From Patescibacteria group bacterium UBA3466 (GTDB lineage Bacteria; Patescibacteriota; Minisyncoccia; Phycocordibacterales; UBA918), in assembly GCA_002378195.1 (NCBI GenBank), contig DFRJ01000003.1, forward strand, positions 32,879 to 96,878: a DNA stretch of 64,000 nucleotides, in the 5' to 3' direction. Below the pieces are notes generated by a model, which searched no databases, was not told the origin of the DNA, and saw nothing but the letters and a program-made list of their open reading frames with translations. This document shows positions 23,927 through 41,904 of the stretch, in pieces. The position numbers and the translations under genes are program-made. Positions within the stretch are counted from its first letter, which is position 1, and the number at the start of each line of letters is the position of its first letter.

Positions 23927-23930
23927 CCTG

Positions 23931-24091: not shown

Positions 24092-24093
24092 CT

Positions 24094-24124
24094 AAATGCC
24101 TAGCTTCTTGCTAGGCATTTTTGT
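24094..24124 (+). terminator. second terminator-like hairpin after the partial tRNA copy
   Basis: aaatgcctagc ttctt gctaggcattttt. Confidence 0.5.
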
Positions 24125-24140
24125 ATACTCAACTATCACT

Positions 24141-25019
24141 ATGAGTACTGAATTTCAATCTTCAGAAAATCGCATAGCCTCCATTGAGGCAGCCATGCTT
24201 CAGCCAGATTTTTGGAATGATCCGCAAAAGGCACAAGAGTTGATCAAAGAACTGCAAGAGTTAAAGGATTTGGCGGATGGCAAAGGCAAGTATCATCGCA
24301 ATGATGCAATTTTTTCGATTGTAGCAGGGGCTGGAGGTGATGATGCGGAAGACTTCGCGCGTATGCTAGTGGAGATGTATCAGAAGTATGCTGAGAGCAA
24401 GAGTTGGGATGTGGTGATAATCGACAGTAATGCCAACGACCATAATGGTTACCGCAATATCACTTTCGAAGTCCAAGGGAAGGATGCCTACGGCACACTG
24501 ATGCACGAGTCCGGGGTGCATCGTTTGGTGCGTATCTCACCTTTTAATAGTAACGGAAAGAGACAGACTTCTTTTGTCTTGGTCGAAGTGTCGCCGAAGC
24601 TCGAAGATCTGAGTTCAGTGGAGCTGAGTGAAGAAGATTTAGATATTTCTTTTGCGCGCTCTGGCGGCGCTGGTGGGCAGAATGTAAACAAGCGAGAGAC
24701 GGCGGTGCGAATTGTGCATAAGCCAACCAATATCTCCGTCAATATTTCATCTGAACGCTCACAAATGCAAAATCGGGAGAAGGGGATGAATTTGTTGGCC
24801 GGTAAGATATATGCTTTCAATGAAGCGCAGCGCGAACGTGAACTGCAAGGGCTAGCGGTTGAGAAGACTCTTAAAATTGAATGGGGGAGCCAGATTCGTT
24901 CGTACGTTTTGCACCCATATCAGATGGTGAAAGATCATCGTCATGATCTAGAAGTGAGAAATGTAGATAAAGTATTAGACGGTGATATACAACCGTTTAT
25001 AGACATTTATAATAATTAA
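24141..25019 (+). CDS. prfB: peptide chain release factor 2, short form with no evident frameshift site
   Basis: SPF tripeptide (RISPFNS) and GGQ motif ([11 protein letters not shown]). Confidence 0.8.
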
Positions 25020-25043
25020 TCAGCTCATGATATACTGTTAATC

Positions 25044-25727
25044 ATGATTTATTTTGATAACGTTTCGAAGCTGTATAGCGACGGTCGCTCAGCTGCCCTC
25101 CAAGAAGTCACGTTTCAAGTTGCCCCCAAAGAGTTTGTATCAATTGTTGGACACTCAGGGGCTGGTAAAACCACTCTACTCAAGATGATTATTGCTGAAG
25201 ATCAGCCATCAAATGGTCAGGTTTTTTTCGAGTCACTTGATGTGCATCGTATTCCCAAGGCAAAGTTGCCAAGCTACCGTCGCAAGATCGGAACTATCTT
25301 CCAGGATTTCAAATTACTCTCACACAAGACTGCTTATGAAAACGTCGCCTTTGCAATGGAAGCAAATGGTCGTACCGACGCTGAGATTGCCGAGAACGTA
25401 CCACACGCATTGGCTTTGGTAGACCTAGAGGACAAGGCATGGAATTTCCCGGGTGAACTGTCAGGAGGTGAGAAGCAGCGGGTAGCCATCGCCAGAGCGA
25501 TTGTAAATCAACCAGATATTATCATCGCAGATGAGCCGACTGGAAATTTGGATCCGATTGCTACGTACGAAGTAGTACAGATTTTAAGAAAGATTAACGA
25601 TCTTGGCACTACCGTCATCATGACCACTCACAACAAAGGGGTGATTGATGAGATAGAGCGCCGGGTCATCACTATGGATGATGGTCGGATAGTGCGTGAT
25701 GATGCTAGTGGTAAGTACGTTTTGTAA
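25044..25727 (+). CDS. ftsE: cell division ATP-binding protein FtsE
   Basis: Walker A GHSGAGKTTLL and ABC signature LSGGEKQR. Confidence 0.85.
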   Translation: MIYFDNVSKLYSDGRSAALQEVTFQVAPKEFVSIVGHSGAGKTTLLKMIIAEDQPSNGQVFFESLDVHRIPKAKLPSYRRKIGTIFQDFKLLSHKTAYENVAFAMEANGRTDAEIAENVPHALALVDLEDKAWNFPGELSGGEKQRVAIARAIVNQPDIIIADEPTGNLDPIATYEVVQILRKINDLGTTVIMTTHNKGVIDEIERRVITMDDGRIVRDDASGKYVL

Positions 25728-25734
25728 TTAATTT

Positions 25735-26658
25735 ATGATAACTGGATTAAGAAGAGTAGTTAAAGCAGGGTTTGTTGGTTTTTGGCGTAATGCCTACGTA
25801 TCGTTGGCTTCAATTTTTGTACTTACTATCGCACTGTTTGTGATCGGTGTGACAATGTTTTTGAATCAGCTCTTGGAGACTTCACTGGTCAACCTACAGT
25901 CTCAGGTTGATATTAACGTTTACTTTGTTCCCGAAGCTCCTGATGATGAGGTGCAGAGTTTGGTTACTGCTGTGGAGGCTTTGCCTGACGTTGTGTCGGT
26001 CAAATTTACCTCACGGGAACAGGCACTTGAAGAGTATCGACAGCGTAATCAAAATAATGAGATTTCCCTCCAAGCCCTTGAAGAGCTAGATGAAAATCCA
26101 CTTGGCGCCAACATTGCTATTTTGGCTGGAGAGACATCACAATACGAAAACATCTCGCGGTTTATTGAGGAGCAGAGAGATTTGGCGCAATCGCCAATAA
26201 TCAGCAGTGTAACTTATGCCGATGACGAAACGACCCGCGATTCAATCGATCGTTTGACCAGTATTATTAATGCAACCGAACGCGCTAGTTTGATCATTAT
26301 GGGCATCCTGCTACTAGCTGCTGTACTTATCACTTTCAATACCATTCGATTGGCTATTTACACTTCACGGGAAGAAATTTCTATCATGCGTTTAGTTGGC
26401 GCGGGCAATATGTTTATTCGCGGGCCTTTCATGTTGCAGGGGATTATGTACGGCTTTATCTCTGGCTGTTTGGCTCTCTTAATCTTTTACCCGCTCTTGG
26501 TTTGGCTTGGTCCACGCACACAGGAATTCTTCGAATTAAATTTATTCGATTACTACATGGCAAACCTCGGTGACATCTTCGGTATTCTAGTCGGGATTGG
26601 AATTGCTCTCGGCCTTATCTCAAGTACTTTTGCAGTAGCACGATATTTACGAACTTAA
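25735..26658 (+). CDS. ftsX: cell division permease FtsX
   Basis: Four-TM FtsX topology with a periplasmic loop. Follows ftsE. Confidence 0.8.
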   Translation: MITGLRRVVKAGFVGFWRNAYVSLASIFVLTIALFVIGVTMFLNQLLETSLVNLQSQVDINVYFVPEAPDDEVQSLVTAVEALPDVVSVKFTSREQALEEYRQRNQNNEISLQALEELDENPLGANIAILAGETSQYENISRFIEEQRDLAQSPIISSVTYADDETTRDSIDRLTSIINATERASLIIMGILLLAAVLITFNTIRLAIYTSREEISIMRLVGAGNMFIRGPFMLQGIMYGFISGCLALLIFYPLLVWLGPRTQEFFELNLFDYYMANLGDIFGILVGIGIALGLISSTFAVARYLRT

Positions 26659-26669
26659 CTCTCTGATTT

Positions 26670-28343
26670 ATGGCAACAAAAGCAAACAACAAAAGAGCGA
26701 CTAAAAAGAAGTCGACTACTAAGTATATTTTTGTGGTTGGGGGAGTGATGAGTGGAGTCGGGAAAGGGGTCGCTTCTTCGTCAATCGCTACACTCCTAGA
26801 ATCACGCGGACATAATGTGACCGCCATGAAAATCGACCCGTACATTAATGTTGATGCTGGTACCATGAACCCAACTGAACACGGTGAGGTGTTTGTTTTG
26901 AAAGACGGTTTAGAGACCGACCAAGACATGGGTAACTATGAACGCTTTCTCAATAAAGATCTCCCGGCCATAAACTACATGACTACTGGTAGCGTCTATC
27001 AATCGGTGATTAGAAAAGAACGAAACCTGGAGTATAAAGGAAAAAATGTAGAGGTGGTGCCGGACATCCCTCTTGAAGTAATTCGCCGCATTAAAGCAGC
27101 CGGAGAAAATGCTGATGCTGACATTGTACAGGTAGAAGTGGGAGGTACGGTTGGGGAGTATCAAAATGTACTTTTCCTTGAGGCAATCCGTATGATGAAG
27201 ACAGAAGAGCCAGATAATGTAGCAGTGGTGATGGTGAGCTATTTACCAGTGCCTGGTTCAATCGGAGAGATGAAGACCAAACCCACTCAGACAGCAGTCC
27301 GTATGCTCAACAGCGCCGGAGTATTTGCTGACATGATTGTATGTCGGAGTAAAATTTCTGTTGACCAAAAGCGTAAAGAAAAAATTGCAAAGTTTTGTAA
27401 TGTGAAAGTAGAAAATGTTATCTCTGCTCCAGATGTCGACAGTATTTACGATATTCCACTACACTATGAAAAAGACGGCCTTTCCGAAGGCTTGCTTAAA
27501 ACACTTGGTCTGTCTACTAGAAAGGTGGCCGACCTAAAGAACTGGAAACGGTTTGTTAAAAGCTCCAAGAACGAAGGCGACACGGTGAAGATTGCGGTGG
27601 TCGGTAAGTACTTCAATTCAGGTGATTTTGTTTTGTCAGACGTCTATATCTCGATTCTCGAAGCGATTAAGTTTTCTGCCTATAAACTGCGGCTAAACCC
27701 AGAAATTGACTACCTATCAGCCGAAGATTTTGCTGATAAGAAAAACCTGCGTAAATTGAATCAATATGACGGTGTGTTGGTGCCGGGCGGTTTTGGCACT
27801 ACTGGCATTGAGGGGAAATTAAATGTGATCGAGTATGTGCGCAAGAAACGGATACCGTACTTTGGTATCTGCTACGGGATGCAGTTGGCGGTACTGGAAT
27901 ACGCCAAGAACGTAGCAAAAATTAAGAACGCTAGTACCGAAGAGATTGACCCGAAAGCCGACCATTTAGTAATTGGTGTAATGGACGAGCAGAAAGAGAA
28001 GATTGCAAAAGGAGATATGGGCGGCACGATGCGGCTGGGGCAGTATGAGGCCAAGCTGAAGAAAGGTTCGGTGGCCGCTAAGGCATACAAAGCACAATCG
28101 ATAGTGGAGAGACATCGTCATCGTTATGAAGTTAATCCTGAGTATATCAATCGATTGACCGATAAAGGTTTAGTCTTTTCCGGTACCTCTCCTGACGGCA
28201 TGTTGATGGAGATTGCTGAATTGCCACAAGAAGACCATCCATTTTTTGTTGGAGTACAGTTTCATCCTGAGCTACAAGCGAGGCCGCTTGACCCGCATCC
28301 ACTTTTCACAGCTTTCATCAAAGCGGCGTATGAGAGTGATTAG
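26670..28343 (+). CDS. pyrG: CTP synthase
   Basis: VVGGVMSGVGKG synthetase N-terminus and glutamine amidotransferase GICYGMQ motif. Confidence 0.95.
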   Translation: MATKANNKRATKKKSTTKYIFVVGGVMSGVGKGVASSSIATLLESRGHNVTAMKIDPYINVDAGTMNPTEHGEVFVLKDGLETDQDMGNYERFLNKDLPAINYMTTGSVYQSVIRKERNLEYKGKNVEVVPDIPLEVIRRIKAAGENADADIVQVEVGGTVGEYQNVLFLEAIRMMKTEEPDNVAVVMVSYLPVPGSIGEMKTKPTQTAVRMLNSAGVFADMIVCRSKISVDQKRKEKIAKFCNVKVENVISAPDVDSIYDIPLHYEKDGLSEGLLKTLGLSTRKVADLKNWKRFVKSSKNEGDTVKIAVVGKYFNSGDFVLSDVYISILEAIKFSAYKLRLNPEIDYLSAEDFADKKNLRKLNQYDGVLVPGGFGTTGIEGKLNVIEYVRKKRIPYFGICYGMQLAVLEYAKNVAKIKNASTEEIDPKADHLVIGVMDEQKEKIAKGDMGGTMRLGQYEAKLKKGSVAAKAYKAQSIVERHRHRYEVNPEYINRLTDKGLVFSGTSPDGMLMEIAELPQEDHPFFVGVQFHPELQARPLDPHPLFTAFIKAAYESD

Positions 28344-28387
28344 GGCACTGTCTCTCTAGAGAATCCTGAAGAAATGTGATAAGGTAG

Positions 28388-28430
28388 TGGCCACAAAAGA
28401 TGATCAATTACCCGAAAAGTCTAATGGTAA
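28388..28430 (+). repeat. upstream partial copy of tRNA-Gln 5' region including 10 nt of flank
   Basis: gatgatcaattacccga..gtctaatggta matches 28561-28590. Confidence 0.5.
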
Positions 28431-28570
28431 GAAATCGAAGATTTCTTCCTTGGCCGGCACTCAGAAGTAATGAGTAAGTAAACTTTCTCATCTTCCTCGC
28501 TTGGCCAAGTAGGACACCTCGTGTCCTCTATAGACAATCGTGTATAGATATTAAAATTAAGATGATCAAT

Positions 28571-28641
28571 TACCCGATCGTCTAATGGTAGGACACTTGG
28601 TTTTGGTCCAAGTAATCGGGGTTCGAGTCCCTGTCGGGTAG
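28571..28641 (+). tRNA. tRNA-Gln (anticodon TTG)
   Basis: Manual fold. tacccga acceptor, D-arm gtct/ggac, anticodon arm cttgg-ttTTGgt-ccaag, T-arm cgggg-ttcgagt-ccctg, 3' acceptor tcgggta, G73. Confidence 0.85.
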
Positions 28642-28795
28642 CCTGCAAGAAAACACCCTTTTGGGTGTTTTCTGTTTGAGCAGGCTACCCGACAAGAAAT
28701 AATCTGGGGGATTATTTCGTGGGACTCGAAAAGCGGTTTGAGATATTTTGGAGCTAGCGAACAAAATATCCAAACGCTGCACAGAATCTGTAAGA
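28642..28795 (+). repeat. repeat R1, copy a: long hairpin that pairs the tRNA-Gln 3' end, plus a conserved core of about 80 nt
   Basis: tagcctgcaagaaaacaccc tttt gggtgttttctgtttgagcaggctacccgac. About 85% identical to 49152-49285. Confidence 0.5.
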
Positions 28796-28814
28796 TTCGA
28801 GTCCCTGTCGGGTA
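28796..28814 (+). repeat. direct copy of tRNA-Gln 3' end (ttcgagtccctgtcgggta)
   Basis: 19/19 nt identical to 28622-28640. Confidence 0.55.
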
Positions 28815-29002
28815 AACAAGCACTTGGACCCAGGTTTATTTTTTCTTGTGCGAGAACATTTATTCAGTGATCGACAAGTTTTGACTTATATACAAATTAT
28901 TCACAGTTTATGCACAAAAAATTATTGTTGTAGTGTGTTCACATAAAAGCTAATGTTAAAGGGTCTTTTACGCTAGAAAGTTTATACAACTAAAAGTCCA
29001 TC

Positions 29003-32000
29003 ATGTTGCATAAAAATATATGTCGATCTGAATTTATTCGATCTCGTCGTACGCTATTTAAAGCCACATCTCTTCTGATTGTGGTTTCTGTTTTATTAGC
29101 TCCTATAGCTCATGTGTATGGTTTCCATCCAGATAATGATTCCAGCTTAGTGAACAACGACCTGTTAATTTCGAAGAATGTCTCATCATTATCAGATAAT
29201 GGCGTTCAGGTTAATTCTTTTGATGGGTCTCTTTCTTATTCTTACCCTGTCCTTTATCCGTCAGGAGTTAATGGATTCGGCCCTAGTCATAATCTAAGTT
29301 ACAGCTCTAATTCCAAAGAGGAATATTCAATTCTTGGTATTCATGGATGGAATCTCGACATTCCATCCATTAAACTCATTAATAAAACGGGTATAGAAAA
29401 CCTGTATTCAGATCCAGTTTATTATTCTTCAATTTCTGGGGAGTTAGTTCAAGTTGGGGTGAGTTCAGAGTATATTTCAAAGAACGAATCAGGAGATTTT
29501 CATTCGTATACTTTAAGTAATGGTGTTTGGACAATAAGTACAAAATCAGGAGATGTTTATACGCTTGGCAGTACAAGTGCTAGTAGGATAGTTAATCCAA
29601 ATGATAGTAGTGAGATATATGCATGGTATACAAACGAGATAGTTGATACTAATGGAAATTCGATAGATTACTCATACTACAAAGATAACGAATCGTTACT
29701 TATAGATACCATTGAGTATGGCGGTATATACGAAATTGATTTTGAAAGAGTTTCAAAGAATTCAACCTCTACTACCCACGAAGCGACCTTTGAAATCAAT
29801 CAGACGAAGGCGGTTGATAGAATACAAGTCATAGTAGATGGTCAAGATGAGTACTACTATGATCTTACTCTGACTTCAGCAGTGAATCCTAATCATGTAC
29901 TTTTAACTCAAATTGACATGGTAGGTGGTAGTGACCAGCTGACAACCGAATTTACATACAATGATAATTCGCTCATGCCATTTTCTGCTGATCAAGATGA
30001 TGATGGTGCAAACGGTAAATGGGACATTGGAAACGGTAAATGGCTTTATGAAAAAGGCGCTTCAAACAAATGGAGGTTTGTAGATGTGAATGGAGACGGG
30101 TTAGCAGATTTCGTGGGTGATGGAGATGTATACCTCAATGACGGCGAGGAATTTGTTTTTAATTTAACATGGTCAACAGCATTGATTGATTTTATCTACG
30201 ACGATACATTGTCACTACGATTTCCAGATATTAATGGCGATGGCTTGGTCGACATAATCTATTCTACTGACGAAGCATATAATACTGGTTGGTTTAGTGA
30301 CGTTTATTTAAATAATGGATCTGGTTGGACTTATGACGCATCGTTTGACGAGAGCCTTGCAACTAATAGCGCCAGGTTTGCATTTGTTGACACAGATGGA
30401 GTGGATGATCTTGGGTGGAGAGTGATTGACGTAAACGGAGATGGTTTGGCAGATCTAATTCATGATAATGATTTAAATTATCCGGACAACACTAATGCTG
30501 TGTATATTAATGACGGTAGCGAGTGGACTCTGAGTAGTGATTTCATAATACCTGCTGATAACGGATTTGCATTACACAACGCGTATGGATTTATTATAGA
30601 CATAAATGGTGACGATCTACCGGATTTGGTCAGTTCATATGAAGTGAATAGTTCTTGGGTAAAGAGAGTTTATGTGAATACTGGTACTGGTTGGGTTGAT
30701 CATGATGGATTTAAGAATAGTCTACCAGCTGCATTCGTTGACGATCCTGGCAGTAGTTCTAATTTCATAGATCACGGTTATCGTCTTGTTGATATCAATA
30801 ATGATGGATTAGCTGATATCGCTTGGCAAACAGATAGTGGGTCAAATCGCCTGAGATATTATCTCAACTTAGGTGATAGTTGGGACACAACTTTTACAGA
30901 AACTGCATGCTGTAATCCCGGCTGGGGCCAAAAGTTACAATACGGAGCTACAGCTTTTGTAGATATTAATGGTGACTCATTAATCGATATATTGTCGGCA
31001 CATAAAATTAGTAGTAGTAACAAACTTGATTCAATTCATATTGCAGCTGGTGGAAAGCCCGATGTTCTGACAGAGGTGGTAAATCAACATGGTGGAACAA
31101 CAAAAGTTTTCTACAAAGGAAGTCAGGAAACAGTTTCAGGATCACAACGTAACGTAGATCTACCAATTGCATTATATGTTGTGGCGTCAACTACCAAAGA
31201 TAATGGCTTCGGACAGGTTATCGAGACCCTTTATGATTATGATTATGGTGAGATATATTTTGATACCGCAGACTTACGAGATCGACGGTTTGGTGGTTTT
31301 GGTGAGTTTACGGAAGAGGTTGTGGGTCTTAACAAAACCATCGTTAATTTTCACCAAGGTAACGACTTAGATTCTAGCTCAGAAGAAGAAAGTGATGGAG
31401 AGCATTTAATTGGTAGAATGTATCAGACTAAGATAACCAATAACTCCGACAGTCTTTATCTTCTAAATCGAGTTAACTATTCTACAACTAGTCTAGGAGA
31501 CGGAAGTGTATTTACTAAGACTGATAGTGTTGTAGAGCTTGCTTATGATGGAGACGTAGACGAAAGGGCTAAAGCTGTTTCGTATACGTACGATGATACT
31601 CATGGTTCAGTATTGTCTATGGTTGAATATGGAGAAGTAAACGGAAACTCAGACGGTACTTATACAGATTCAGGGACTGATAAGAGGACAAGTCTTTATG
31701 AATATGCGACAAGTTCGGATGGATTGGTAGCTGTAACAAAAGAAACCCTTAATGATAATAGTAATACCAAAATTCAAGAATCAGTCTATTATTATGACGA
31801 TTTAACTTATGGATCTGCTGCTCTTGGCAACCTAACAAAAAGAGAAGATTGGGTTACCGGGGCCACTTTTGTTGACACTGAATGGGACTATAACAGCAAC
31901 GGACTAGTAACTACAGAAACTGACCCAAAAGGAAATGCTATTAATTATGATTACGATACCTATAATTTGTATCTAGCTTCTTCTACAAATGCTGAAGGTC

Positions 32001-35000
32001 ATAGCTCGCTTTATGAATATGATTATGTATTTGGGAATCTTTCAACGACAACCAATCCTAATGGTGAGTTATTTGTAACCGAGTTCGATGATCTTGGCAG
32101 ACCTATCACTATCGTTGGTCCAGACCCGCAAACCGGAAGTCCTGTTGTAATAACTGAATATGAATATACAGATACAGTTGGTGCAGTGAGTACTAAACAA
32201 ATAAATCATTTGGACGAAACTATAAGCAATGATGTTTATTCGTATTTTGATGGATTTGGTCGGATAATTCAGGAGAGAGTTGAAGCGGAGGATAGTAACG
32301 AATATGTGGTCCGAGATATTGTGTATGGAGATAATGGTTTGGTAAGTAAGGAATCGTTACCTTTTTACGATATGGGATCAGCTAGATCCTCCGCGCAGAC
32401 CGATACTGATTTACTCAGTCAGTACACATATGATGCCCTTGGTAGAGTCACTGCTTTAACTACAGCTGTTGGCACATCCAACACTTCGTATGATCAGTGG
32501 AAGGAAACTCATACAGATACAGAGAATAATGATGTAAGCTTTGAATATGATGCGTATGATCAAATCAGTATTGTCACTGAAAATGAAGGTCTAAATAGCT
32601 ATACAACCGAATATGACTGGAACCCAAGAGGAGATCTTGTAACTATTACAGATGCGGAAGGGAATGAGCGAAACATTGTTTATGATGGGTTATCTCGTCG
32701 GACAAGCTTAGAAGATCTTCATGATACTTCAGATACAAGCTTCGGAACTTGGTCGTTTGTGTATGATGATGCTGGTAACTTAACTCAAAAAACTGATCCT
32801 GAGTCCCATGTTGTTAATTACACCTACGATGACATTAATCGTATCCTGACTGAGGACTATACTGGCGAATCTGGAACAGAGATCACTTATTCATACGATT
32901 CATGTACGAATGGTATTGGATATATTTGTTCAATTACTGATACTGATATGACAACTTCTTACGCTTATACTGCAAATGGTCTTACTGAATCAGAAACTAG
33001 ATTATTAAACAGTACTTCATACGTAACAAGTTACGACTATAATCGACAAGGCGATCAAACTGAAGTTACATACCCAGACAGTTCAGTTGTGAAATACACA
33101 TATCATAAGGGTAGAAATGTAGACAAGATTGAACAAAAAGAAGACGGCGATAGCTTCGCAGAGATAATATCTGACCTGAACTATGGACCACACGGGTTAG
33201 TAGAATTCATGGAGCATAGTAATGGTATTGAGACTACAAGGACATATCGTGCCGATGAACTTTATCGATTATCAAACATTGTAAGTGTCGCTACGAGTTC
33301 AGGTACTGGTTCAGGAGGTGATGCTCACCGTACTTTAGAAGCAGAACTTTTCGAGTTAACTGAAGCAATGGTAACTGAGGAGGCTGTTGAGACAGTGGAA
33401 GAATTAGTTCTAGAAGAGCGGGCAGAAGAGAGGATAGTAACTTCAGAAATTGTAGAAGAGGTAGTTGAAGAGATAGAACCAGTTGAACAATCAGCAACCA
33501 TATCTTCTTCTACTGAAGAAATACAGATACAAGATGACATACAAAATGTTGAAACTTCCACTTCGACAGAAAATCTTGAACAAAGCTCTTTCGATAATGT
33601 GATTGAAGAGCCTGTTCTATTGCCTACTCAATCTGATTCAACTGAAGAAATGATAAAAACTGAAAGTAAAGACAAGAAGATATTAGGAAAACAGGAAAAA
33701 GCTAGATTAATTTACGAAAAGACAAAGCGGAAATCACACGATCGAGATAAATACAAAATCGATATTGTAGATATGAATGAGGTGGAAGATGGTGTGGCAG
33801 TCTTTGCAAGAGTTTGGGATAGAGGTGAGCAAATTGGCTTTGGACAGGATGGAACAGTTGATATCGAAAGGTTTATCTTTAAGAATCCGCCGATTAGTGT
33901 GCCAGATAAGAGCGTCACTTATACCTATGAATTAGATGGAGAGACCTTTAGCGCCTATGGTTTCAAAGAGGATCCGGAGGAGGCTCTTCTGCAATCTCTA
34001 GAGCATGTAATTGAAGCAAAAAAACTTAAATTCAATGACGAAAAAATCAAACAAGGAAAGGTCGGGAATACCACTACAACATTCTATCCATCAGCTGGTC
34101 AGAGTAGTCCGGTAGATGGAGGGTTGATACAGTGGTTTGCTGGAGGGACCTCATGGTCATCAATCCGTAACGACACAACTAGTTCGTGGGTTCATGATGA
34201 TATTGATGGAGTTGGAGCATTCAATACTGCTCAGATCTACGACGGATACAATGGAGCATGGAATGGTATGTCCCGAGGGGTATTCGGCTTTGATACCTCG
34301 TCATTAGGCTCCGATACCATAGATGCTGTGACTTTATCAATCCATGGAAGCGCAAAGACTGATGGATACTCAGGTGCAGATGTTGTGGTTGATAGAGTTG
34401 TTCCAGCTAGCAATAGTTCATTGGCAGTAGGTGATTTCGATCTCACTAATTGGGATGAGACACTACAGTCAGACACGAGAATAACAATATCTGCTTGGGA
34501 TAATACTGATTACAATGACTTTGTATTAAATAGTATTGGAGAAGGGAACATTAATTCTTCGGGTATCTCTTGGTATGGAGTCCGTCATGGTATGGACTTT
34601 GATGATGCTGAGCCAACTAGAATCAGTACGAATAGTAGAATTATTACTCGGTACGCAGATGCAAACGGAACTTCAGAAGATCCTAAGTTAATAGTAGAGC
34701 ACACCGGTTCAGCGGCTGGCAGTAGCGGATCAGGTATACAGAGCTTAGAGTACGAGTATGATTCAGTTGGTAACATCACAAAGATTACCGACACTTCGAG
34801 TACAACTCTCTTAGGTGAAGTAGACTATATCTACGATGATTTGTATCGATTAGCTTCTGCATCGACTACAAATTCTGCAACAAGCTCTTATCTCAGAAAC
34901 TTCACTTATAACTCAATTGGTAACATACTGACAAAGACAGGTGGGGGTACCTATGTGTATGCTGGTGACACAGGAACTAATTATGCGAATCCTCATGCAG

Positions 35001-36208
35001 CTACTTCAATCGGAGGAGTGTCAGTTAGTTATGATGACAATGGAAACGTGACAGCTTTCGGTTCTGATTCTTATACCTGGAACTATCGAAATGAGTTAAT
35101 TGAATCAGATGTGAATGGGGCGACTACTACCTATGCTTACGATCATAATGGTGATCGAGTGAGTAAATCATCTGATGGAAATACCACATACTATGTTTCA
35201 AGTATGTATGAAGTAGAGGACAGTGATATTACTAAGCATGTGTACCTTGGAGATATGCTGGTAGCAACCATTGAGTCTGACGGTTCTGCTGATGAGATCC
35301 ATCATAATCACCTTGATCATCTCAATTCAACCAATGTGGTCACTAATGCTTCGGGAACAGTTGATCAACTACTCAGCTACTATCCATTTGGATCGATGAG
35401 GGTAGATCAGAAGTTAGGGACGGTGGATCAGAGCAAGCGCCATACCGGCCATGATTATGATGAAGAAACGGATCTAAACTATATGGGTGCAAGGTATTAC
35501 GCCGGCGACACTGGACGCTTTACCTCTCAGGATCCGGTATCCCTAGCTCTGGGAGATTGGAAAACAGTTCAGGACAAGACTGGAGGTAATTTAGCCTTTT
35601 ATCTTCAAAATCCGCAAACCCACAACTCCTACAGCTACACAGCAAATAATCCGCTGAAGTATGTTGATAAGAATGGTGAATTTATCTGGTTTGCCCCTGC
35701 TGTCATATATGCTCCTCAAATATTGGCTGGTCTAGCAGCTTTGTCGACACCATTAGGTGTGGCTATGTTGGTGGATGATTATCAAACCCTGACTAATAAC
35801 CCTGATGGTCTAGATCTTGCTCTCATTGCTGTACCAGGAGTCTTAGGTAAGGCTGGAGATGTAGCGAAAGTCTCGATGAACAGAAATGCTTGGTCTGCAG
35901 GACGAGCAGGTAATGCTCAGAATAGCTTAACTAATCACTTTAAGGATCATGGGGAATTGTTAGGTGCTAAGTCAGCTCAGGAGTATTACGACAGAGCTAA
36001 TGACGCTATGAAACCAGGTAGTGGTTTTACGAGATTGGAGAATGCTGATGGAAAGGTCGATTATTACAATCCAAGTAACAGAGAGTTGGTTGGCTTAAAT
36101 GAAAAAGGTCAAATATCTACGTATCATAAAGTTACGAATACAAACAAAGCTGAAGGACTTGATTATCGGGTTAAGAAGAAGCAAAATGAAAAGAATGGAG
36201 GAGGATAA
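29003..36208 (+). CDS. giant RHS/YD-repeat polymorphic toxin with SpvB-like N-domain and FG-GAP repeats (fused TcB/TcC-like)
   Basis: Signal peptide/TM. SpvB-like motif at YPVLYPSGVNGFGPSHNLSYSSNS. At least six VDVNGDGLAD-type FG-GAP repeats. Many YDYD/YEYD YD repeats. RHS core ending YMGARYYAGDTGRFTSQDP. C-terminal variable domain of about 230 aa. Confidence 0.85.
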   Translation: MLHKNICRSEFIRSRRTLFKATSLLIVVSVLLAPIAHVYGFHPDNDSSLVNNDLLISKNVSSLSDNGVQVNSFDGSLSYSYPVLYPSGVNGFGPSHNLSYSSNSKEEYSILGIHGWNLDIPSIKLINKTGIENLYSDPVYYSSISGELVQVGVSSEYISKNESGDFHSYTLSNGVWTISTKSGDVYTLGSTSASRIVNPNDSSEIYAWYTNEIVDTNGNSIDYSYYKDNESLLIDTIEYGGIYEIDFERVSKNSTSTTHEATFEINQTKAVDRIQVIVDGQDEYYYDLTLTSAVNPNHVLLTQIDMVGGSDQLTTEFTYNDNSLMPFSADQDDDGANGKWDIGNGKWLYEKGASNKWRFVDVNGDGLADFVGDGDVYLNDGEEFVFNLTWSTALIDFIYDDTLSLRFPDINGDGLVDIIYSTDEAYNTGWFSDVYLNNGSGWTYDASFDESLATNSARFAFVDTDGVDDLGWRVIDVNGDGLADLIHDNDLNYPDNTNAVYINDGSEWTLSSDFIIPADNGFALHNAYGFIIDINGDDLPDLVSSYEVNSSWVKRVYVNTGTGWVDHDGFKNSLPAAFVDDPGSSSNFIDHGYRLVDINNDGLADIAWQTDSGSNRLRYYLNLGDSWDTTFTETACCNPGWGQKLQYGATAFVDINGDSLIDILSAHKISSSNKLDSIHIAAGGKPDVLTEVVNQHGGTTKVFYKGSQETVSGSQRNVDLPIALYVVASTTKDNGFGQVIETLYDYDYGEIYFDTADLRDRRFGGFGEFTEEVVGLNKTIVNFHQGNDLDSSSEEESDGEHLIGRMYQTKITNNSDSLYLLNRVNYSTTSLGDGSVFTKTDSVVELAYDGDVDERAKAVSYTYDDTHGSVLSMVEYGEVNGNSDGTYTDSGTDKRTSLYEYATSSDGLVAVTKETLNDNSNTKIQESVYYYDDLTYGSAALGNLTKREDWVTGATFVDTEWDYNSNGLVTTETDPKGNAINYDYDTYNLYLASSTNAEGHSSLYEYDYVFGNLSTTTNPNGELFVTEFDDLGRPITIVGPDPQTGSPVVITEYEYTDTVGAVSTKQINHLDETISNDVYSYFDGFGRIIQERVEAEDSNEYVVRDIVYGDNGLVSKESLPFYDMGSARSSAQTDTDLLSQYTYDALGRVTALTTAVGTSNTSYDQWKETHTDTENNDVSFEYDAYDQISIVTENEGLNSYTTEYDWNPRGDLVTITDAEGNERNIVYDGLSRRTSLEDLHDTSDTSFGTWSFVYDDAGNLTQKTDPESHVVNYTYDDINRILTEDYTGESGTEITYSYDSCTNGIGYICSITDTDMTTSYAYTANGLTESETRLLNSTSYVTSYDYNRQGDQTEVTYPDSSVVKYTYHKGRNVDKIEQKEDGDSFAEIISDLNYGPHGLVEFMEHSNGIETTRTYRADELYRLSNIVSVATSSGTGSGGDAHRTLEAELFELTEAMVTEEAVETVEELVLEERAEERIVTSEIVEEVVEEIEPVEQSATISSSTEEIQIQDDIQNVETSTSTENLEQSSFDNVIEEPVLLPTQSDSTEEMIKTESKDKKILGKQEKARLIYEKTKRKSHDRDKYKIDIVDMNEVEDGVAVFARVWDRGEQIGFGQDGTVDIERFIFKNPPISVPDKSVTYTYELDGETFSAYGFKEDPEEALLQSLEHVIEAKKLKFNDEKIKQGKVGNTTTTFYPSAGQSSPVDGGLIQWFAGGTSWSSIRNDTTSSWVHDDIDGVGAFNTAQIYDGYNGAWNGMSRGVFGFDTSSLGSDTIDAVTLSIHGSAKTDGYSGADVVVDRVVPASNSSLAVGDFDLTNWDETLQSDTRITISAWDNTDYNDFVLNSIGEGNINSSGISWYGVRHGMDFDDAEPTRISTNSRIITRYADANGTSEDPKLIVEHTGSAAGSSGSGIQSLEYEYDSVGNITKITDTSSTTLLGEVDYIYDDLYRLASASTTNSATSSYLRNFTYNSIGNILTKTGGGTYVYAGDTGTNYANPHAATSIGGVSVSYDDNGNVTAFGSDSYTWNYRNELIESDVNGATTTYAYDHNGDRVSKSSDGNTTYYVSSMYEVEDSDITKHVYLGDMLVATIESDGSADEIHHNHLDHLNSTNVVTNASGTVDQLLSYYPFGSMRVDQKLGTVDQSKRHTGHDYDEETDLNYMGARYYAGDTGRFTSQDPVSLALGDWKTVQDKTGGNLAFYLQNPQTHNSYSYTANNPLKYVDKNGEFIWFAPAVIYAPQILAGLAALSTPLGVAMLVDDYQTLTNNPDGLDLALIAVPGVLGKAGDVAKVSMNRNAWSAGRAGNAQNSLTNHFKDHGELLGAKSAQEYYDRANDAMKPGSGFTRLENADGKVDYYNPSNRELVGLNEKGQISTYHKVTNTNKAEGLDYRVKKKQNEKNGGG

Positions 36209-36509
36209 AACAAAAATAATAGAAAAATACAAAGATGTTCATCTCGGATACTATGATTATAAAGATGATAAGTATCGAATTGAGGATTTCTTAAATGAAG
36301 ATTTTCTTGTGGAATGGATTATAGGTATCGCAGATAAATATGATCAAGGTGTTACTCATCAAGGTCTAGACTTTATCAATGAATACTATGGTATTAAAAA
36401 TATTATTGATAAAGTGCTTGAGAAAAGTCCCCAATTCCCATTCGACGGTGGCGATCCTTACAAATTTCTTGAAGGTCAGAGAGAGCGGAGCTATTCCGCA
36501 AAGGACTAA
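36186..36509 (+). CDS. putative cognate immunity protein (overlaps toxin stop)
   Basis: ATG overlaps the last codons of the toxin gene. Small acidic protein. Position follows the toxin-then-immunity rule of RHS loci. No motif. Confidence 0.4.
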   Translation: MKRMEEDKTKIIEKYKDVHLGYYDYKDDKYRIEDFLNEDFLVEWIIGIADKYDQGVTHQGLDFINEYYGIKNIIDKVLEKSPQFPFDGGDPYKFLEGQRERSYSAKD

Positions 36510-36673: not shown

Positions 36674-38632
36674 ATGAAGGCAGTGCCAACCTCAATCAAG
36701 TTTCTGGTTTTGTATATGGTCATAGTGATTGGCTATATTTTATACGAGATTACTTTAGGAGATAATCAAGCAAAAGAAGCATTCGATCTTTATAACCTCG
36801 GTCTTGTTTATGATGGAATAAACTTTATTGCGGTTGCAGGGGCAGTTTTGTTACTTGTTTTGCTTTGGTTTAAAGAAAAGAATTTTTATCCCGTGGCAAT
36901 GGGTTGGTTGACTATAGATTTCTTCAGCACACTTTTGTTTTGCGTACTCTATTTCATCAATCTAGATGTCTTAATTAGTGCTGAAAATGATCCTGCTCTA
37001 CAGGAATATATGAGTTCTACAGCTGGACTGGTTGCGTGGGGGGTTCAGATATCGCTTTATTTGGCACTTATTCTATATTTCATTTACGCTGTCCATAAAC
37101 ATAAGCTTGTGCTTACTGGAAATGGTCCGATTAGCATAGAAGAAAAAAAGGAGTACAAAAGTTTTGGAATCAAGGTCCTTATAGCTTGCTTAGTGATTGC
37201 TGCTGCAGGTGCAGGAGTGTACATGGGAGTAGCTGATAAGAAAGCTATGAATGAGAGTTTTTATATGAAAGAAAACTCTAATGTTCGCGCTGGAGGAAGC
37301 TTTGCCAGCACTTCTGAAAGTCTTACTGATGAACAACTTAGGGAGTTGTTGGAGAATCCGGAAAGAAATACTCTGGTTATTAGTCTTAATAGTATTGGAT
37401 CAACGATTGTACTTGTTGAAGAAGATTGGATGGGAGACGACCTGTATGTACTTGACCAAGAGCTTACTGTTTATGAGCAAACAAAAAAGGAACAATACCA
37501 GTCATTGAAGGATGAAGTCGAGGGTATTTTTGCTGATGCGGACTTGAAACAAGAAACAATCTCGAACTATCAGTATGACCTGGAGTATTTTAATGATCAG
37601 ATTGTTTTAACAGATTCATTGAACAATGCAAAAAAACAGATAGATGCTGTTGCGGAAAGCTTGGGTGTTCCAAGTGATGATGAGTCTCAGGGAGGTAGCA
37701 ATTGGTGGGAAACAGATGAAGAGTACGTAAATAATCTCAAACTAGCCACCAGTATCACTGAGGATATAAATGCAATATATAAGACCAGTACCAAACTTCG
37801 TGAAGCAATGATCGAGAAGTTAAAAGCTGATGATGTTGAGGGTTCAATTGCTGTCTATAATGATATTCAGGTGATTGATTACATCCTAAACTGGCACAAT
37901 ACAGCATACGAAACACTTGCTAAATCACTGTATGCCACAGAACAAAAGTACGCTGAGCAGGGATTGGCTTCTGAAGATGCACCATCCCACAAACCAACTA
38001 GTCTTATTGATATAAAAGATCAGGTACAGGATATTGTTCAAGATGTTGCAGACATTAGTGAGAACTTGGATGCAGACACTCTTTACTTCAGAGCTCAGGA
38101 CTTTGAAGATGCCGAAGATATAGAAAATGCTGTTAAGTATTATCGTTTAGCTGCTGAAAAATATCCTGAAGACAATGGAGAAAGATATGAAGCACTGGCA
38201 CAGGCTGAGTGGGAGCTTGAGAACCCAGACGGAATCTTGAAATATCTAGAGCAAGGGTATGTAGTAGATCCAACAAACGATTATTTACTCCATACATACG
38301 GACATTTCTTAAACGGTATCTCATTGAGTTCTGCCTATCGTCAAGATCTAGACTTGGCCTTGAAAATCAATCTAGAGTTAGTGAGCTTACTTCCTGATGA
38401 CGAAAACTTAGATAACCTTGCTTACACTTACTTATTGCGTGGTGAGGAAGATAAGTTTGAGGAAACAGTTGGAAGAATGAGCGTTTACGATGAGTCAGAA
38501 CATTATGGTTGGTACGCTAAAATCTATCACCGCCGTGGAAATCAGGAGATGGCAGAAAAGTATAAAAACTTAGCGATTGGTGTTGATGACTGGAATGATG
38601 AGCGTGAACAGTATCTAAGCCTCAGCTTCTAG
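36674..38632 (+). CDS. hypothetical membrane protein with C-terminal TPR-like region
   Basis: About 190-aa multi-TM N-terminus. C-terminal helical repeats (YYRLAAEKYPED...). Confidence 0.3.
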   Translation: MKAVPTSIKFLVLYMVIVIGYILYEITLGDNQAKEAFDLYNLGLVYDGINFIAVAGAVLLLVLLWFKEKNFYPVAMGWLTIDFFSTLLFCVLYFINLDVLISAENDPALQEYMSSTAGLVAWGVQISLYLALILYFIYAVHKHKLVLTGNGPISIEEKKEYKSFGIKVLIACLVIAAAGAGVYMGVADKKAMNESFYMKENSNVRAGGSFASTSESLTDEQLRELLENPERNTLVISLNSIGSTIVLVEEDWMGDDLYVLDQELTVYEQTKKEQYQSLKDEVEGIFADADLKQETISNYQYDLEYFNDQIVLTDSLNNAKKQIDAVAESLGVPSDDESQGGSNWWETDEEYVNNLKLATSITEDINAIYKTSTKLREAMIEKLKADDVEGSIAVYNDIQVIDYILNWHNTAYETLAKSLYATEQKYAEQGLASEDAPSHKPTSLIDIKDQVQDIVQDVADISENLDADTLYFRAQDFEDAEDIENAVKYYRLAAEKYPEDNGERYEALAQAEWELENPDGILKYLEQGYVVDPTNDYLLHTYGHFLNGISLSSAYRQDLDLALKINLELVSLLPDDENLDNLAYTYLLRGEEDKFEETVGRMSVYDESEHYGWYAKIYHRRGNQEMAEKYKNLAIGVDDWNDEREQYLSLSF

Positions 38633-39067: not shown

Positions 39068-40813
39068 CTATTTATAGCATGGTTCTTCTGATTTTTCTGA
39101 GAAGGTGTCAAATTCTTTCCTATTAACCGGAATTGATCCACCGATTGGTCCTTTTGGCTTCTTAAGTCGTTCAGAATAAGGAATTTTATCTTTGATACAA
39201 TACTCGATGTTAGTTGTCTCGATTTTTTTGTTTACTTCAACTTCTACTGGTACCGAGCCGTGGTATTCAACTTTATCATTGTAGTAAACAACCTTGTTTG
39301 TAAAATCAAGGAGAAATTTACGTCTAGTGTCAAAGTCATAGCATTTCCTGTATCTAGCTTTAGCCTCAGTACAGTACTTCTTCACTGCGATATCAACGAT
39401 ATCTTTTTTGTGCAAGAGTGGAATCTTTTTCAGCAACTCTTGTTTCTCCAGTTTTAACTTATTAATCGTATTATCAAGTTCTAGACTCTTATCTACGTAT
39501 TCATTTCTATCAATTTCGCTGGAAGTATAAATATCAATCAGTCGCTTTTTTGTTAGCTCAATCTTCCTCATCTTCTCTTCGTTTGACTTTATTTTCTTGT
39601 TGAACCGTATCTCATTTGCTTGTACTCGACGCTTGAAATGGCTCATGCACGCCTTCAGTTTCCTGTCACTAAACAGATGACTCTCAATCATAGTGAAGAC
39701 TTTCTCCTCAAGAACCGATCCCTTAATAGCAATATTGTCACAAGGTTTCATTTTCGGCCTGTTCTTCTCAGCATGCATATATTTGCTGAATTTATAATTG
39801 CATTTATATGAAAGCTTGTAGTACGCCTTGGGTTTTTTCATACGTTTATCTACGTAGTAACGCCGATTAGCAAAGATGCTCCCGTCACAGCACCCGCATC
39901 GCACTAGGGAAGAAAGCATTTGTGGGACTCTCGGGTTCCTATATCTTTTTCGATTATGTTCTAGTTTCGTTTGAGCCTTATTGAATAGTTCTTTTGAGAT
40001 AATTGATGGTACTGGTACTCCAATCCATTCACTACGATCTCGCTTAACTACCTTGGTTTTATGTTCTGAACTAGTTAAACTTTTCTTTTTCATTGTGTTG
40101 TAGTAACGGACTCCGGTATACATTTCTTGGTTTAGCATGGCTTTGATAAGCGATACTCTCCACAGTCCTCGACCTTGTTTTGTTGGGGCGTTCATTTCTT
40201 CTAATTGCTGACACATTTTGTTCATACCAATTTCACCATTGGTGTAGGTTTCAAATATCCAGCGGACTATCTTTGCTTCTGTTTCATTTATAGTATATGA
40301 AGGAGGTGACGTTTGGGTTCTGCGGTGATGATCATAACCATACACCTGGCATCCATTTCCAGAGAGAGTACCTTGGCTAATACGAAGCTGTTTCGACCGC
40401 ATCACTCGTTCTACAATCTTTGCTCTTTCTAGTTCCGCGACGGCCCCTAGGACAGTAAGAGTAAATTTGTTTTCAGGATTATGAACGTAGTCTTTCCCGT
40501 TGATGATTATCTGTTTTTTGTATTTAAGAATCTCAGCAATAATAATCGTTTGATAGGTCACTTCTCGGGCTATACGATCTGTATTTAGAAAATAGATGGT
40601 ATCAAATTGCTTCGTTTTTAGATCCTCACGAAGCTTATTCATGGCAGGCCTGTCTAACTCAGCTCCACTATAACCATCATCAATGTATTCCTTGACTAAG
40701 ATGTGGCCAGCTTCAGCTATTTGTCTTTTTAATGCTTCAATCTGGCTTTCAATGGTTTTATCCCTTCTTTGCAAGGACGAACTCACCCTTGCATATAATG
40801 TTGCTCGTTTCAT
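39068..40813 (-). CDS. large serine recombinase
   Basis: N-terminal resolvase catalytic domain (LYARVSSSLQ with the Ser nucleophile), recombinase domain, CGCCDG...C zinc ribbon. 581 aa. Confidence 0.85.
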   Translation of the reverse strand: MKRATLYARVSSSLQRRDKTIESQIEALKRQIAEAGHILVKEYIDDGYSGAELDRPAMNKLREDLKTKQFDTIYFLNTDRIAREVTYQTIIIAEILKYKKQIIINGKDYVHNPENKFTLTVLGAVAELERAKIVERVMRSKQLRISQGTLSGNGCQVYGYDHHRRTQTSPPSYTINETEAKIVRWIFETYTNGEIGMNKMCQQLEEMNAPTKQGRGLWRVSLIKAMLNQEMYTGVRYYNTMKKKSLTSSEHKTKVVKRDRSEWIGVPVPSIISKELFNKAQTKLEHNRKRYRNPRVPQMLSSLVRCGCCDGSIFANRRYYVDKRMKKPKAYYKLSYKCNYKFSKYMHAEKNRPKMKPCDNIAIKGSVLEEKVFTMIESHLFSDRKLKACMSHFKRRVQANEIRFNKKIKSNEEKMRKIELTKKRLIDIYTSSEIDRNEYVDKSLELDNTINKLKLEKQELLKKIPLLHKKDIVDIAVKKYCTEAKARYRKCYDFDTRRKFLLDFTNKVVYYNDKVEYHGSVPVEVEVNKKIETTNIEYCIKDKIPYSERLKKPKGPIGGSIPVNRKEFDTFSEKSEEPCYK

Positions 40814-41007
40814 ACATACTTTTAATTTATTAATGCCAGACCAGTATCTGGTGCATAGCTATGCAGAGCAACCGATACGTCACATACTAGGCACAAAGTC
40901 TTAGCAAGATTGAGTGTCAGCGATAGAATTTTATTTGATAGCAGTATTTTGCTATTATGTTCATTACAACTTGACCTAAACCGAGCAACTCCGTTGGCGG
41001 CATGGTC

Positions 41008-41165
41008 CAATACAAAACCGCTACAGTATAGAAGACTCTCCGTCAGAGTCACTGTAGCGGTCGTGTCTGGGAAACCAGATATGGGTCCTCCGGGATCGCG
41101 ATGGCGGGGAGCCTTCTGTCTGAGAGACTCTAGGTTCACCACACTAAATTAAATCCGCTACAGTG
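41008..41165. promoter_or_regulatory. cluster of CCGCTACAGT motifs (two direct, one inverted) in the divergent region upstream of the recombinase
   Basis: 41008-41017, 41041-41050 (inverted) and 41155-41164. The first two flank the palindrome gactctccgtcagagtc. Confidence 0.35.
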
Positions 41166-41169
41166 CATT

Positions 41170-41904
41170 ATGAATACAACAGTAGCTCCCGACTGGGAGC
41201 ATTTTAAGATATTGATACAAGAGCGTATCAAGAACTTTTGGGGTTACGGCAACCTCAACGGCCCATACTGGTTCATCGGTATGGAAGAAGGTTATAACGA
41301 AACAAACGAAATATTACTAGACCGCTTCACCGCTACTGCTCATCAGCAAGTCTGTGATATCTATGATGATCTAAAAGTAGACCCTGGTCATGTTTATTGG
41401 TTTGAAGATGGAGCACCAATACAGCCGACGTATCGTCGGCTGATTGAAATGATGCTCTACTCTCAAAGCAAGGTTCATCCGGATAAGGAAGAAATTAGAC
41501 AGTTTCAAATTGAAAAACTGGGTCGAAAGCAAAGTAACCATGCGCTACTTGAACTCATGCCACTGCCATCAAAGTCTATTGCAGAAAAAGATTGGCTCTA
41601 CGCTGATTCAGGTGTCGAGGGTTTATCCTCTCGAAAAGACTATTTAGAAACATACAAAAGTGAGCGAATTGAGGCATTACGAAACCTAATTCATAAACAT
41701 AAACCTAAGTACGTGATCTGTTACTCACTGTCATACCAAGAAGATTGGCAACAACTAACGGATAAACCGTTTATAGAAGTGAACCCACGTCGGCTCTATC
41801 TAGCGAGAGATACTGACACCACATTCGCTATTACTCCACATTCAGTTGCTCAAGGTCTCTCCAATAATGATTGGAAAATGATTATCGAAGAGCTATTTCT
41901 TTGA
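41170..41904 (+). CDS. hypothetical protein
   Basis: 244-aa ORF with no recognised motif. Confidence 0.3.
   Translation: MNTTVAPDWEHFKILIQERIKNFWGYGNLNGPYWFIGMEEGYNETNEILLDRFTATAHQQVCDIYDDLKVDPGHVYWFEDGAPIQPTYRRLIEMMLYSQSKVHPDKEEIRQFQIEKLGRKQSNHALLELMPLPSKSIAEKDWLYADSGVEGLSSRKDYLETYKSERIEALRNLIHKHKPKYVICYSLSYQEDWQQLTDKPFIEVNPRRLYLARDTDTTFAITPHSVAQGLSNNDWKMIIEELFL

Follow-up and report, generated by a model that had tools for sequence, protein, structure and literature searches.

RHS cocoons are usually seen as sealed containers whose targeting comes from a separate machine (TcA or a type VI secretion system, T6SS) or from N-terminal adhesins. In the monoderm bacterium Bacillus subtilis, WapA/WapI was reportedly described by Koskiniemi et al. 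in 2013 as an Rhs/YD-repeat polymorphic toxin, and orphan tip/immunity modules, said to have been reported for Salmonella Rhs by Koskiniemi et al. in 2014, are said to be a feature of Rhs loci generally. WapA is tied to the wall of its producer by wall-binding repeats. Here we describe an RHS polymorphic toxin gene of the TcB/TcC fusion type in a 64-kb stretch of contig DFRJ01000003.1 from Patescibacteria group bacterium UBA3466. This whole stretch of 64,000 nucleotides is called the window, its coordinates are used throughout, and features lie on the forward (+) strand unless stated. The gene (29003-36208) is an open reading frame (ORF) with an ATG start that encodes 2401 aa, identified from its Pfam and NCBIfam domains. 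In our judgement its product is probably a Sec-exported surface RHS cocoon that cleaves itself, carries a BECR RNase as payload, is countered in kin by an immunity protein and displays a glycan-binding cassette.

Like the WapA/WapI-type toxins, the window toxin combines a Sec signal (here predicted), an RHS shell, a core cleavage motif, an RNase-type tip and a downstream putative immunity gene, and neither kind needs a T6SS or TcA. It differs in an N-terminus that is TcB-like (SpvB followed by an FG-GAP propeller) where the WapA type has wall-binding repeats, in the 475-aa binding-type cassette within its shell, and in its Patescibacteria host. With the BC subcomplex of Tc toxins (TcdB2-TccC3 and YenB/YenC; 4igl, 5kis) it shares SpvB, the FG-GAP propeller, the YD cocoon, the aspartyl-protease core and an encapsulated, variable C-terminal toxin, with TcB and TcC in one chain. 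Unlike Tc BC it has no TcA nearby and does have an immunity gene, an orphan module and an in-shell insertion, and its payload is a predicted BECR RNase rather than an ADP-ribosyltransferase. The TcdB middle domains PF12256 (TcdB_toxin_midN) and PF12255 were not reported for it at E<=0.01, and PF12256 is present in the homologues P0007, P0089 and P0092.

The initial annotation had also likened the protein to teneurins. The best PDB sequence match was BiTLP (9pt5/9ifo), confined to aa 1909-2187 in the distal shell and core; according to PMC13018210, BiTLP likewise has a surface-exposed YD shell, an encapsulated polymorphic C-terminal domain and immunity genes. The same paper defines teneurin-like proteins by the combination of FN-plug, NHL propeller and YD-shell and has their display governed by adhesion domains at the N-terminus. 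In the window toxin the plug is SpvB/FG-GAP, Pfam reports no NHL (no FN-plug model was run), the alignment to 9pt5_A is limited to distal shell and core, and the binding module sits in the shell and not at the N-terminus; the teneurin-like class was therefore rejected. What was found instead is the set of features by which Rhs/YD polymorphic toxins are recognised: the shell, the core triad, a variable tip, a co-varying downstream ORF and an orphan module. The toxin type, the tip fold and the immunity logic are of known kinds. Our literature searches found no description of an RHS shell with a fixed hotspot for insertions that carry interchangeable binding modules, of an RHS-insert cassette shared with phage tail-module proteins, or of a concentration of this RHS family in Patescibacteria, and no literature combining CPR (candidate phyla radiation), Rhs and polymorphic toxin. 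The one paper found to name both Patescibacteria and the RHS repeat deals with a different superfamily.

Layout and distribution of the toxin gene

The protein begins with a basic stretch and a hydrophobic segment (aa 1-41; 29003-29125), predicted to be a Sec signal peptide or signal anchor; hydropathy places the hydrophobic segment at aa ~19-40, with a Kyte-Doolittle maximum of 2.16 over aa 23-35. The best-scoring SpvB (TcB N-terminal) stretch follows at aa 173-231 (29519-29695; PF03534, E 1.7e-12, 47.6 bits, above cut-off), and in a PDB sequence search the YenB structures 4igl and 5kis matched the toxin only there. Six FG-GAP blades of a beta-propeller (30080-30988) were located by a search for the motif VDxNGDxLxD, which occurs at aa 360, 408, 475, 532, 596 and 653, by matches to FG-GAP_3 (PF13517) and as a DNA repeat family (D3). 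The YD-repeat shell comes in two parts. Its proximal part (aa 663-1430; 30989-33292), which runs up to an insertion point, contains RHS_repeat/YD_repeat matches at aa 1254-1286 (RHS_repeat PF05593, E 2.6e-24; TIGR01643, 54.7 bits; YD_repeat_2x also matched), resembles the Tse5/Tre23 shells and could be aligned in 120/120 listed homologues. The distal part (aa 1906-2125; 34718-35377) matches residues 1852-2126 of BiTLP 9pt5_A and the Rhs structures 7q97 and 8h8a. SpvB, the six-bladed propeller and the YD repeats would together close into a TcB/TcC-type cocoon.

The RHS-associated core (aa 2126-2226; 35378-35680) is covered over aa 2126-2225 by TIGR03696 (Rhs_assc_core) at 56.1 bits against a cut-off of 32.5. 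From aa 2160 it reads YMGARYYAGDTGRFTSQDP (YMGARYY...QDP), and its second motif is D-K-N-G-E, not DPxGL. When 116 core regions are aligned, R2164, D2177, D2222 and G2225 prove invariant, and in these 116 homologues core conservation ends after aa 2226. An arginine and two aspartates are named as the RHS/TcC autoprotease residues in PMC13018210, and R2164, D2177 and D2222 are their counterparts. We therefore predict that the aspartyl-protease core cuts the chain after ~aa 2226, an expectation drawn from sequence conservation, which would leave a 175-aa tip inside the shell. Since core conservation continues to aa 2226, the variable tip is aa 2227-2401. These observations bear out most of what the initial annotation had read from the letters, namely a 2401-aa fused TcB/TcC-like RHS protein with an N-terminal signal peptide or transmembrane segment, an SpvB-like domain, at least six FG-GAP repeats, a long YD-repeat region and an RHS core. 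The variable C-terminal domain that it placed after the core is there too, at 175 aa instead of about 230.

Exactly this 2401-aa protein is encoded by 12 contigs of marine assemblies (Tara/JGI/ENA) that are independent of one another. Four of those loci are 99.995-100% identical to the window in DNA over 17-27 kb, so the gene is not an assembly artefact; the 12 identical contigs rule out misassembly of the toxin gene including its insertion. One further contig (NODE_626 of ERZ841824; locus L001) equals window 19003-33144 at 100% and then continues with other sequence: its breakpoint at window 33144/33145 lies ~150 nt short of the insertion, and an unrelated tetratricopeptide repeat (TPR) frame is found ~1 kb before the contig end. 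The L001 protein (P0001) is 1675 aa long and identical to toxin aa 1-1381; we regard it as a chimera or else a rare or structural variant, and not as evidence against the toxin gene. P0001, which has no tip, represents its 90% cluster, and indexed searches consequently miss the tip: a word-indexed homology search with the tip alone gave no match.

A search with the whole protein found >1100 relatives at E<=1e-10, and the SpvB/FG-GAP/RHS layout is present in 120/120 of the best ones, among which those with a named source are mostly labelled Patescibacteria metagenome-assembled genomes (MAGs). Some family members already carry the NCBI labels 'DNRLRE domain-containing' or 'FG-GAP-like repeat-containing'. 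Placement of the window itself comes from the neighbouring CTP synthase (pyrG), for which the 80 best species-level relatives are 60-81% identical and all the taxon-titled ones are Patescibacteria MAGs (Paceibacteria, Parcubacteria, Kaiser-, Nomura-, Adlerbacteria and others). This Paceibacteria-like placement supports, by inference, the earlier remark that the organism has a tiny genome. Of the 80 related pyrG loci just one has an RHS-like gene no more than 10 kb away, and the RHS gene is thus accessory.

The toxin tip, its overlapping gene and the orphan module

The tip consists of a hydrophobic pre-toxin linker and a predicted toxin domain. The linker (aa 2227-2284; 35681-35854; Kyte-Doolittle 1.3-1.8 at aa 2235-2250) had no Pfam match, and a similar hydrophobic segment precedes the toxin in P0133 and in many members of the tip family; that these 58 residues interact with a membrane during entry is conjecture only. 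The domain behind it (aa 2285-2401, 117 aa; 35855-36205) is a predicted BECR/colicin-D-like RNase. Among the 120 homologues tips vary, and this one is shared by four RHS relatives. A profile built from five tip sequences matched 3431 representative clusters (50% identity; E<=1e-3) among 1.84 billion. In 139/149 of the best family matches the domain is C-terminal, behind carriers that include RHS cores, Hint domains, signal peptides and others, and since C-terminal recurrence behind varied carriers is the signature of a polymorphic-toxin module, we take the tip to be one. Pfam placed no domain on the toxin region of any of ten full-length family members; an ArlS_N match in P0133 was taken as spurious.

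With 46 sequences the profile matched 8ey4_A, the CdiA-CT of the contact-dependent inhibition (CDI) toxin-immunity complex of E. coli O32:H37, at E 7.3e-27 and 22% identity, and colicin D weakly (E 0.25). The alpha-alpha-beta4 core fold of the BECR group is present in the domain. H2312 and H2316 are invariant in the family and W2297, Y2328 and K2376 nearly so, a suggestive pattern that makes these five candidate active-site residues. The carrier of the 8EY4 toxin is CdiA and that of the tRNase domain in 1tfk and 5znm is colicin D, whereas the window tip is carried by an RHS protein. The characterised BECR CdiA-CTs that PMC9086364 reviews are all RNases and nearly all tRNases. Once delivered into a neighbouring cell, the tip would then cleave RNA, most likely tRNA, and so stop translation. 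The question of whether the C-terminal region is a toxin domain at all, on which the initial annotation had staked its claim, is answered by the profile in favour of a BECR RNase family.

The toxin stop codon is overlapped by a small ORF at 36186-36509 (107 aa, overlap 23 nt; or 104 aa from the ATG at 36195, overlap 14 nt), a putative cognate immunity gene. Its product is acidic (pI 4.8) against a pI of 9.3 for the toxin domain. An index of 5.8 billion proteins contains only three homologues besides its own cluster. In locus L006 a 71% identical homologue overlaps the end of an RHS gene whose core end and tip are 49% identical to the window's; in L008 the corresponding values are 70% for the overlapping ORF and 75% for the last 60 residues of the tip; and in L007 a 61% identical homologue is an orphan, preceded by another kind of tip together with the small ORF that belongs to it. 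A further pair comes from another sample: P0092 (L009), with an insert-less shell, has an RNase domain 35% identical to the window tip, and 2 nt after its stop lies a 108-aa ORF 31% identical to the window's small ORF. The small ORF therefore co-varies with this tip in four loci, with one orphan copy in addition, and it is this pattern that makes its role as the cognate immunity gene credible. The initial annotation had proposed such a gene with the same overlap and had made its claim depend on conservation beside homologous tips, which is what was found in L006, L008 and L009. The small ORFs adjoining the more distant tips of P0089 and P0032 are unrelated, as expected from immunity diversity. 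No solved chain showed detectable similarity to the protein, and scans of metagenome contigs with the immunity alignment and with the single protein, using highly degenerate patterns, confirmed no locus. The product would bind and block the toxin in the producer and in sibling cells. Arrays of small acidic ORFs also follow other RHS tips (L007 4068-4737; L006 1205-1918), and these arrays, including the orphan copy, suggest an accumulation of immunity genes in related Patescibacteria.

The window contains a second tip. A 213-nt direct repeat (D1) that encodes part of the core lies at 35482-35694 in the toxin gene and, 89% identical, at 47505-47717, where it opens an orphan RHS C-terminal module (47506-48174). 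This module starts MGARYY; its aa 1-67 match aa 2161-2226 of the main gene, DNA homology stops exactly at the core end, and the tip that follows is different (pI 8.6), with a linker that also occurs in the tips of P0059, P0108 and P0119. Its end is overlapped by an acidic ORF (48122-48478; pI 4.4) with no family match to its product, which from its position is a putative immunity gene of the orphan tip. The pair, 11 kb downstream of the toxin gene, is a classical orphan tip/immunity module, and the shared 213-nt core may allow toxin switching by recombination. Neither it nor the tRNA-Gln island described below had been noticed in the initial annotation. Recombination between main gene and orphan across the repeat would also delete 12 kb.

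These genes bear on whom the toxin is directed against. It might be an episymbiont's weapon for exploiting its host, arresting or lysing it for nutrients, and no means of discriminating kin or competitors, with the immunity protein serving only against self-intoxication before export. The cultivated Patescibacteria are epibionts according to PMC10633639; the toxin family is concentrated in Patescibacteria MAGs, and the glycan-binding and phage-tail-like modules discussed below would suit recognition of a host envelope. However, competition between toxin-exchanging relatives is characteristically marked by orphan immunity genes and orphan tip/immunity modules, the orphan copy in L007 would be useful only if relatives with this toxin are met, and a toxin that is encapsulated and Sec-exported should need little protection before export. 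We consider a role confined to host exploitation possible but rather unlikely, and favour antagonism between cells with protection of kin.

A variable insertion site in the shell and its phage relatives

The two parts of the shell are separated by aa 1431-1905 (475 aa; 33293-34717), an insertion within the YD repeats with Gly/Ser linkers at its edges. The flanks (aa 1230-1430 and 1906-2100) were projected onto 118 homologues: in 35 they are contiguous (gap -4 to +20), and in the other 83 there are 207-1126 extra residues at exactly the same junction. The site is thus a true and precise insertion point, and judged from these alignments it is a hotspot of the whole family and not a peculiarity of the window gene. 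An insertion at the junction of TcB and TcC was considered and is unlikely, with only ~320 aa of shell and core following the insert. The ~470-aa mid-shell insertion of the initial annotation, placed at about 33290-34700, is confirmed with these exact borders; of its proposed make-up the Glu/Val-rich linker stands, and what had been taken for one domain is in fact two.

The linker (aa 1431-1555; 33293-33667) is acidic, with 28% D+E, and found no homologue by BLAST; the inserts of homologues likewise begin with acidic stretches. Domain A (aa 1556-1684; 33668-34054), a small all-beta domain with a helix and a folded core at ~1577-1681 (AlphaFold2 (AF2) pLDDT ~94), had no Pfam, NCBIfam or PDB sequence match and is present in 28/120 homologues. 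Domain B (aa 1685-1905; 34055-34717) is a CBM96/DNRLRE-like beta-sandwich, as judged from AF2, Foldseek and the viral structure library BFVD. The AF2 model of both domains, made from a 22-sequence alignment with 22 invariant columns across the 22 copies, has a pLDDT of 90.7 and a pTM of 0.91. In Foldseek, domain B matched 8wab, a chondroitin-sulfate carbohydrate-binding module (CBM; prob 1.0, E 3.5e-5, TMt 0.61), 7vbo, an alginate CBM of the CBM96 type (prob 1.0, E 2.3e-4, TMt 0.51), and also sandwiches resembling the TGF-beta prodomain. CBM96/DNRLRE modules of this kind, known from polysaccharide lyases and phage tail proteins, share its fold, but the window-type domain B is preceded by domain A and has no sequence-model match to them. 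Pfam, CBM96 included, gave no match to the insert at E<=10. Single-sequence scans of the linker, both domains, the tip and the small ORF against Pfam, NCBIfam and PHROGs yielded only sub-threshold noise, such as Peptidase_M43 at 21.6 bits (cut-off 23).

Domain B occurs in 58 of the 83 inserts, as A+B in 27 and as B+B in 4. Inserts with neither domain carry Big_7 and SLH, DUF2341 and Laminin_G_3, a surface Ig and Gly_rich_2, a Sortilin/BNR propeller, two CBM_4_9 and Ig_Rha78A_N, or DNRLRE and Ig, and the homologue P0013 has a bona fide DNRLRE domain at this same site. Second A+B copies nearer the N-terminus are seen in P0009 and P0012 (aa ~200-540) and in P0002, P0007 and P0010 (aa ~930-1520), so the cassette is mobile within the protein family and not tied to one loop. 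We infer that the insertion is exposed outside the cocoon at a permissive loop of the shell, where the acidic tether would display the two-domain cassette. The cassette most likely binds a surface glycan, and it would thereby do the targeting for which other systems use TcA or N-terminal adhesins.

The cassette is also found in phages. An alignment search with A+B found 49 IMG/VR contigs with copies 28-47% identical. In the 42 loci examined the copies lie in frames of only 228-832 codons, stop to stop, and are therefore not RHS genes; these stand-alone phage proteins (L093-L141) consist essentially of the A+B cassette. Neighbours were annotated for three of the viral contigs: the A+B gene lies between a major head protein and a tail-fibre-like protein with an endolysin (L098, 4893-5996), directly after a collagen-like tail fibre (L102, 4905-6020), and after Dit-like and minor-tail-like proteins (L106, 4845-7319). 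A large glycosyltransferase gene follows it a short way downstream in L102 and also in L099. GenBank phages yielded no A+B copy by tblastn; the viral relatives of the cassette all come from uncultivated IMG/VR contigs. In BFVD, domain B matched CBM96 proteins (including one of a Brevibacillus phage), a pectate lyase, tail proteins and tail-fibre proteins, and two uncharacterised viral proteins matched the whole A+B unit at E 1e-19. A rough neighbour-joining tree, made without bootstrap and only indicative, shows viral and RHS copies intermixed, the nearest neighbour being viral for 9/34 RHS copies.

Two other views of the insertion were weighed. Binding could be directed at the producer, the insertion anchoring the toxin to the cell's own envelope (S-layer or wall glycans) and targeting being provided elsewhere, for example by type IV pili or the propeller. 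Big_7 with SLH, a classical cell-wall anchor, stands at exactly this site in one homologue, CBM-like domains can bind the wall polymers of their own cell, a type IV pilus cluster lies in the same window, and the toxin, beyond its N-terminal signal or anchor, has no other wall-binding domain. On the other hand, phage tail-module proteins, which serve to attach to other cells, share the cassette and have apparently exchanged it repeatedly with the RHS toxins, and the extreme variability of what the site contains fits diversifying recognition of targets better; self-anchoring is accordingly the unlikely option of the two. Less probable by far is that the insertion is a functionless passenger of phage origin tolerated in a loop: phage relatives exist, and the Gly/Ser flanks and the length of the acidic tether point to a loose link with the shell, but all 12 contigs have the insertion complete and in frame, its fold is a high-confidence prediction and 22 of its columns are invariant, and 83/118 homologues have retained a folded module of some binding type there. 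It is at least as improbable that the protein belongs as BC subunit to a tripartite Tc (ABC) toxin with TcA encoded elsewhere in a genome of which only 64 kb is visible, for while SpvB with an FG-GAP propeller is the TcB architecture and the propeller the TcA-docking gate in Tc toxins, no TcA-like or other >900-aa ORF was found in the window (as the initial annotation had noted for TcA) or beside six homologues, an immunity gene and orphan modules typify interbacterial polymorphic toxins and not Tc toxins, and the payload is a bacterial-type RNase.

Mode of action, genomic setting and implications

We return to the displayed-cassette cocoon with an RNase payload and kin immunity, against which several points weigh. 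Opening of a gate of the TcB type and crossing of the envelope with no TcA, T6SS or CdiB are unexplained by it. As single sequences the tip, the insert and the small ORF gave nothing significant in Pfam, NCBIfam, PHROGs or PDB, so it is from family profiles and structure predictions that they are assigned. The NCBIfam DNRLRE model NF033679 did not match aa 1576-1908 at E<=1, and the TM-scores of domain B in Foldseek are moderate (0.5-0.6). The phage proteins owe the label 'tail-module' solely to their gene neighbourhood, and the SLH domain at the insertion site of one homologue suggests anchoring to the producer's wall and not target binding. For the tip, the invariant histidine pair comes from conservation and not from mapping onto colicin D or 8EY4, and our literature search found no paper that mentions 8EY4 and did not find its substrate.

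The toxin gene lies in what is most likely an integrative island at tRNA-Gln, ~20 kb long and possibly composite, on which the RHS locus rides. Its left border is tRNA-Gln(TTG) at 28571-28643 (ARAGORN and Rfam), and a candidate right att site is a 19-nt exact direct repeat of the 3' end of this tRNA gene, CGAGTCCCTGTCGGGTAGC, at 48598-48616. A further partial copy of the 3' end lies at 28796-28814 and a copy of the 5' end at 28397-28415, and the 100 nt after the tRNA gene recur at 49173-49272 (86%). The repeats enclose the toxin and immunity genes and, besides the orphan module, genes for a TPR protein, a recombinase, a methyltransferase, a repressor-like S24 protein and two proteins that are TIR-like and caspase-like. 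The tRNA-Gln repeats and this cargo, together with the lower G+C of part of the stretch and the same order of toxin, immunity, recombinase, methylase and S24 genes in the relative L006, make the island the most likely interpretation. The recombinase (39068-40813, - strand) is a large serine recombinase with Resolvase and Recombinase domains, CcrB/XisF-like at E 1e-30.

Other features of the window were recorded. The stretch 39068-46216 is a mobile or defence-like block with the serine recombinase (-), an N6/N4 methyltransferase (-), a LexA/CI-like S24 protein, a TIR-like protein (ThsB_TIR, weak) and a caspase-like Peptidase_C14 protein, and a LOOT RNA motif (RF03000, 55.3 bits) lies beside the recombinase gene at 40973-41097. 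In every contig of the population the gene right after the immunity gene encodes the 652-aa TPR protein (36674-38632), which has a weak C39_PA2778-like match over its TPR part only and is absent in L006. The type IV pilus cluster mentioned above (3889-11130; PilM, PilB/T2SSE, PilC/T2SSF) is typical of Patescibacteria and may bear on cell-cell contact. The window also encodes ligA, gatA and murJ.

Several of these observations have a wider meaning. The tip documents a very large BECR RNase toxin family that is hit by no current Pfam model tried, and the marine population supplies a compact, naturally occurring example of an RHS locus that sits, orphan module included, on a tRNA-linked island. 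In this Patescibacteria-centred family one exact loop of the shell would be a display site for many kinds of binding module. Tentatively, and with somewhat more doubt than conviction, we propose that this site is a second, independently swappable specificity locus and that receptor-binding cassettes are traded between phages and the RHS toxins of Patescibacteria. If so, a cell could retarget its toxin through the displayed module and change the payload through recombination between tip and orphan, and the toxin would be a delivery device of cell-attached bacteria that is independent of TcA, T6SS and CdiB and has its targeting domain in the wall of the cocoon. Were the site to set the target, it would provide a natural modular protein of binder, container and payload, and a handle, readable from sequence, on the partner and competitor specificity of ultra-small and mostly uncultured episymbionts.

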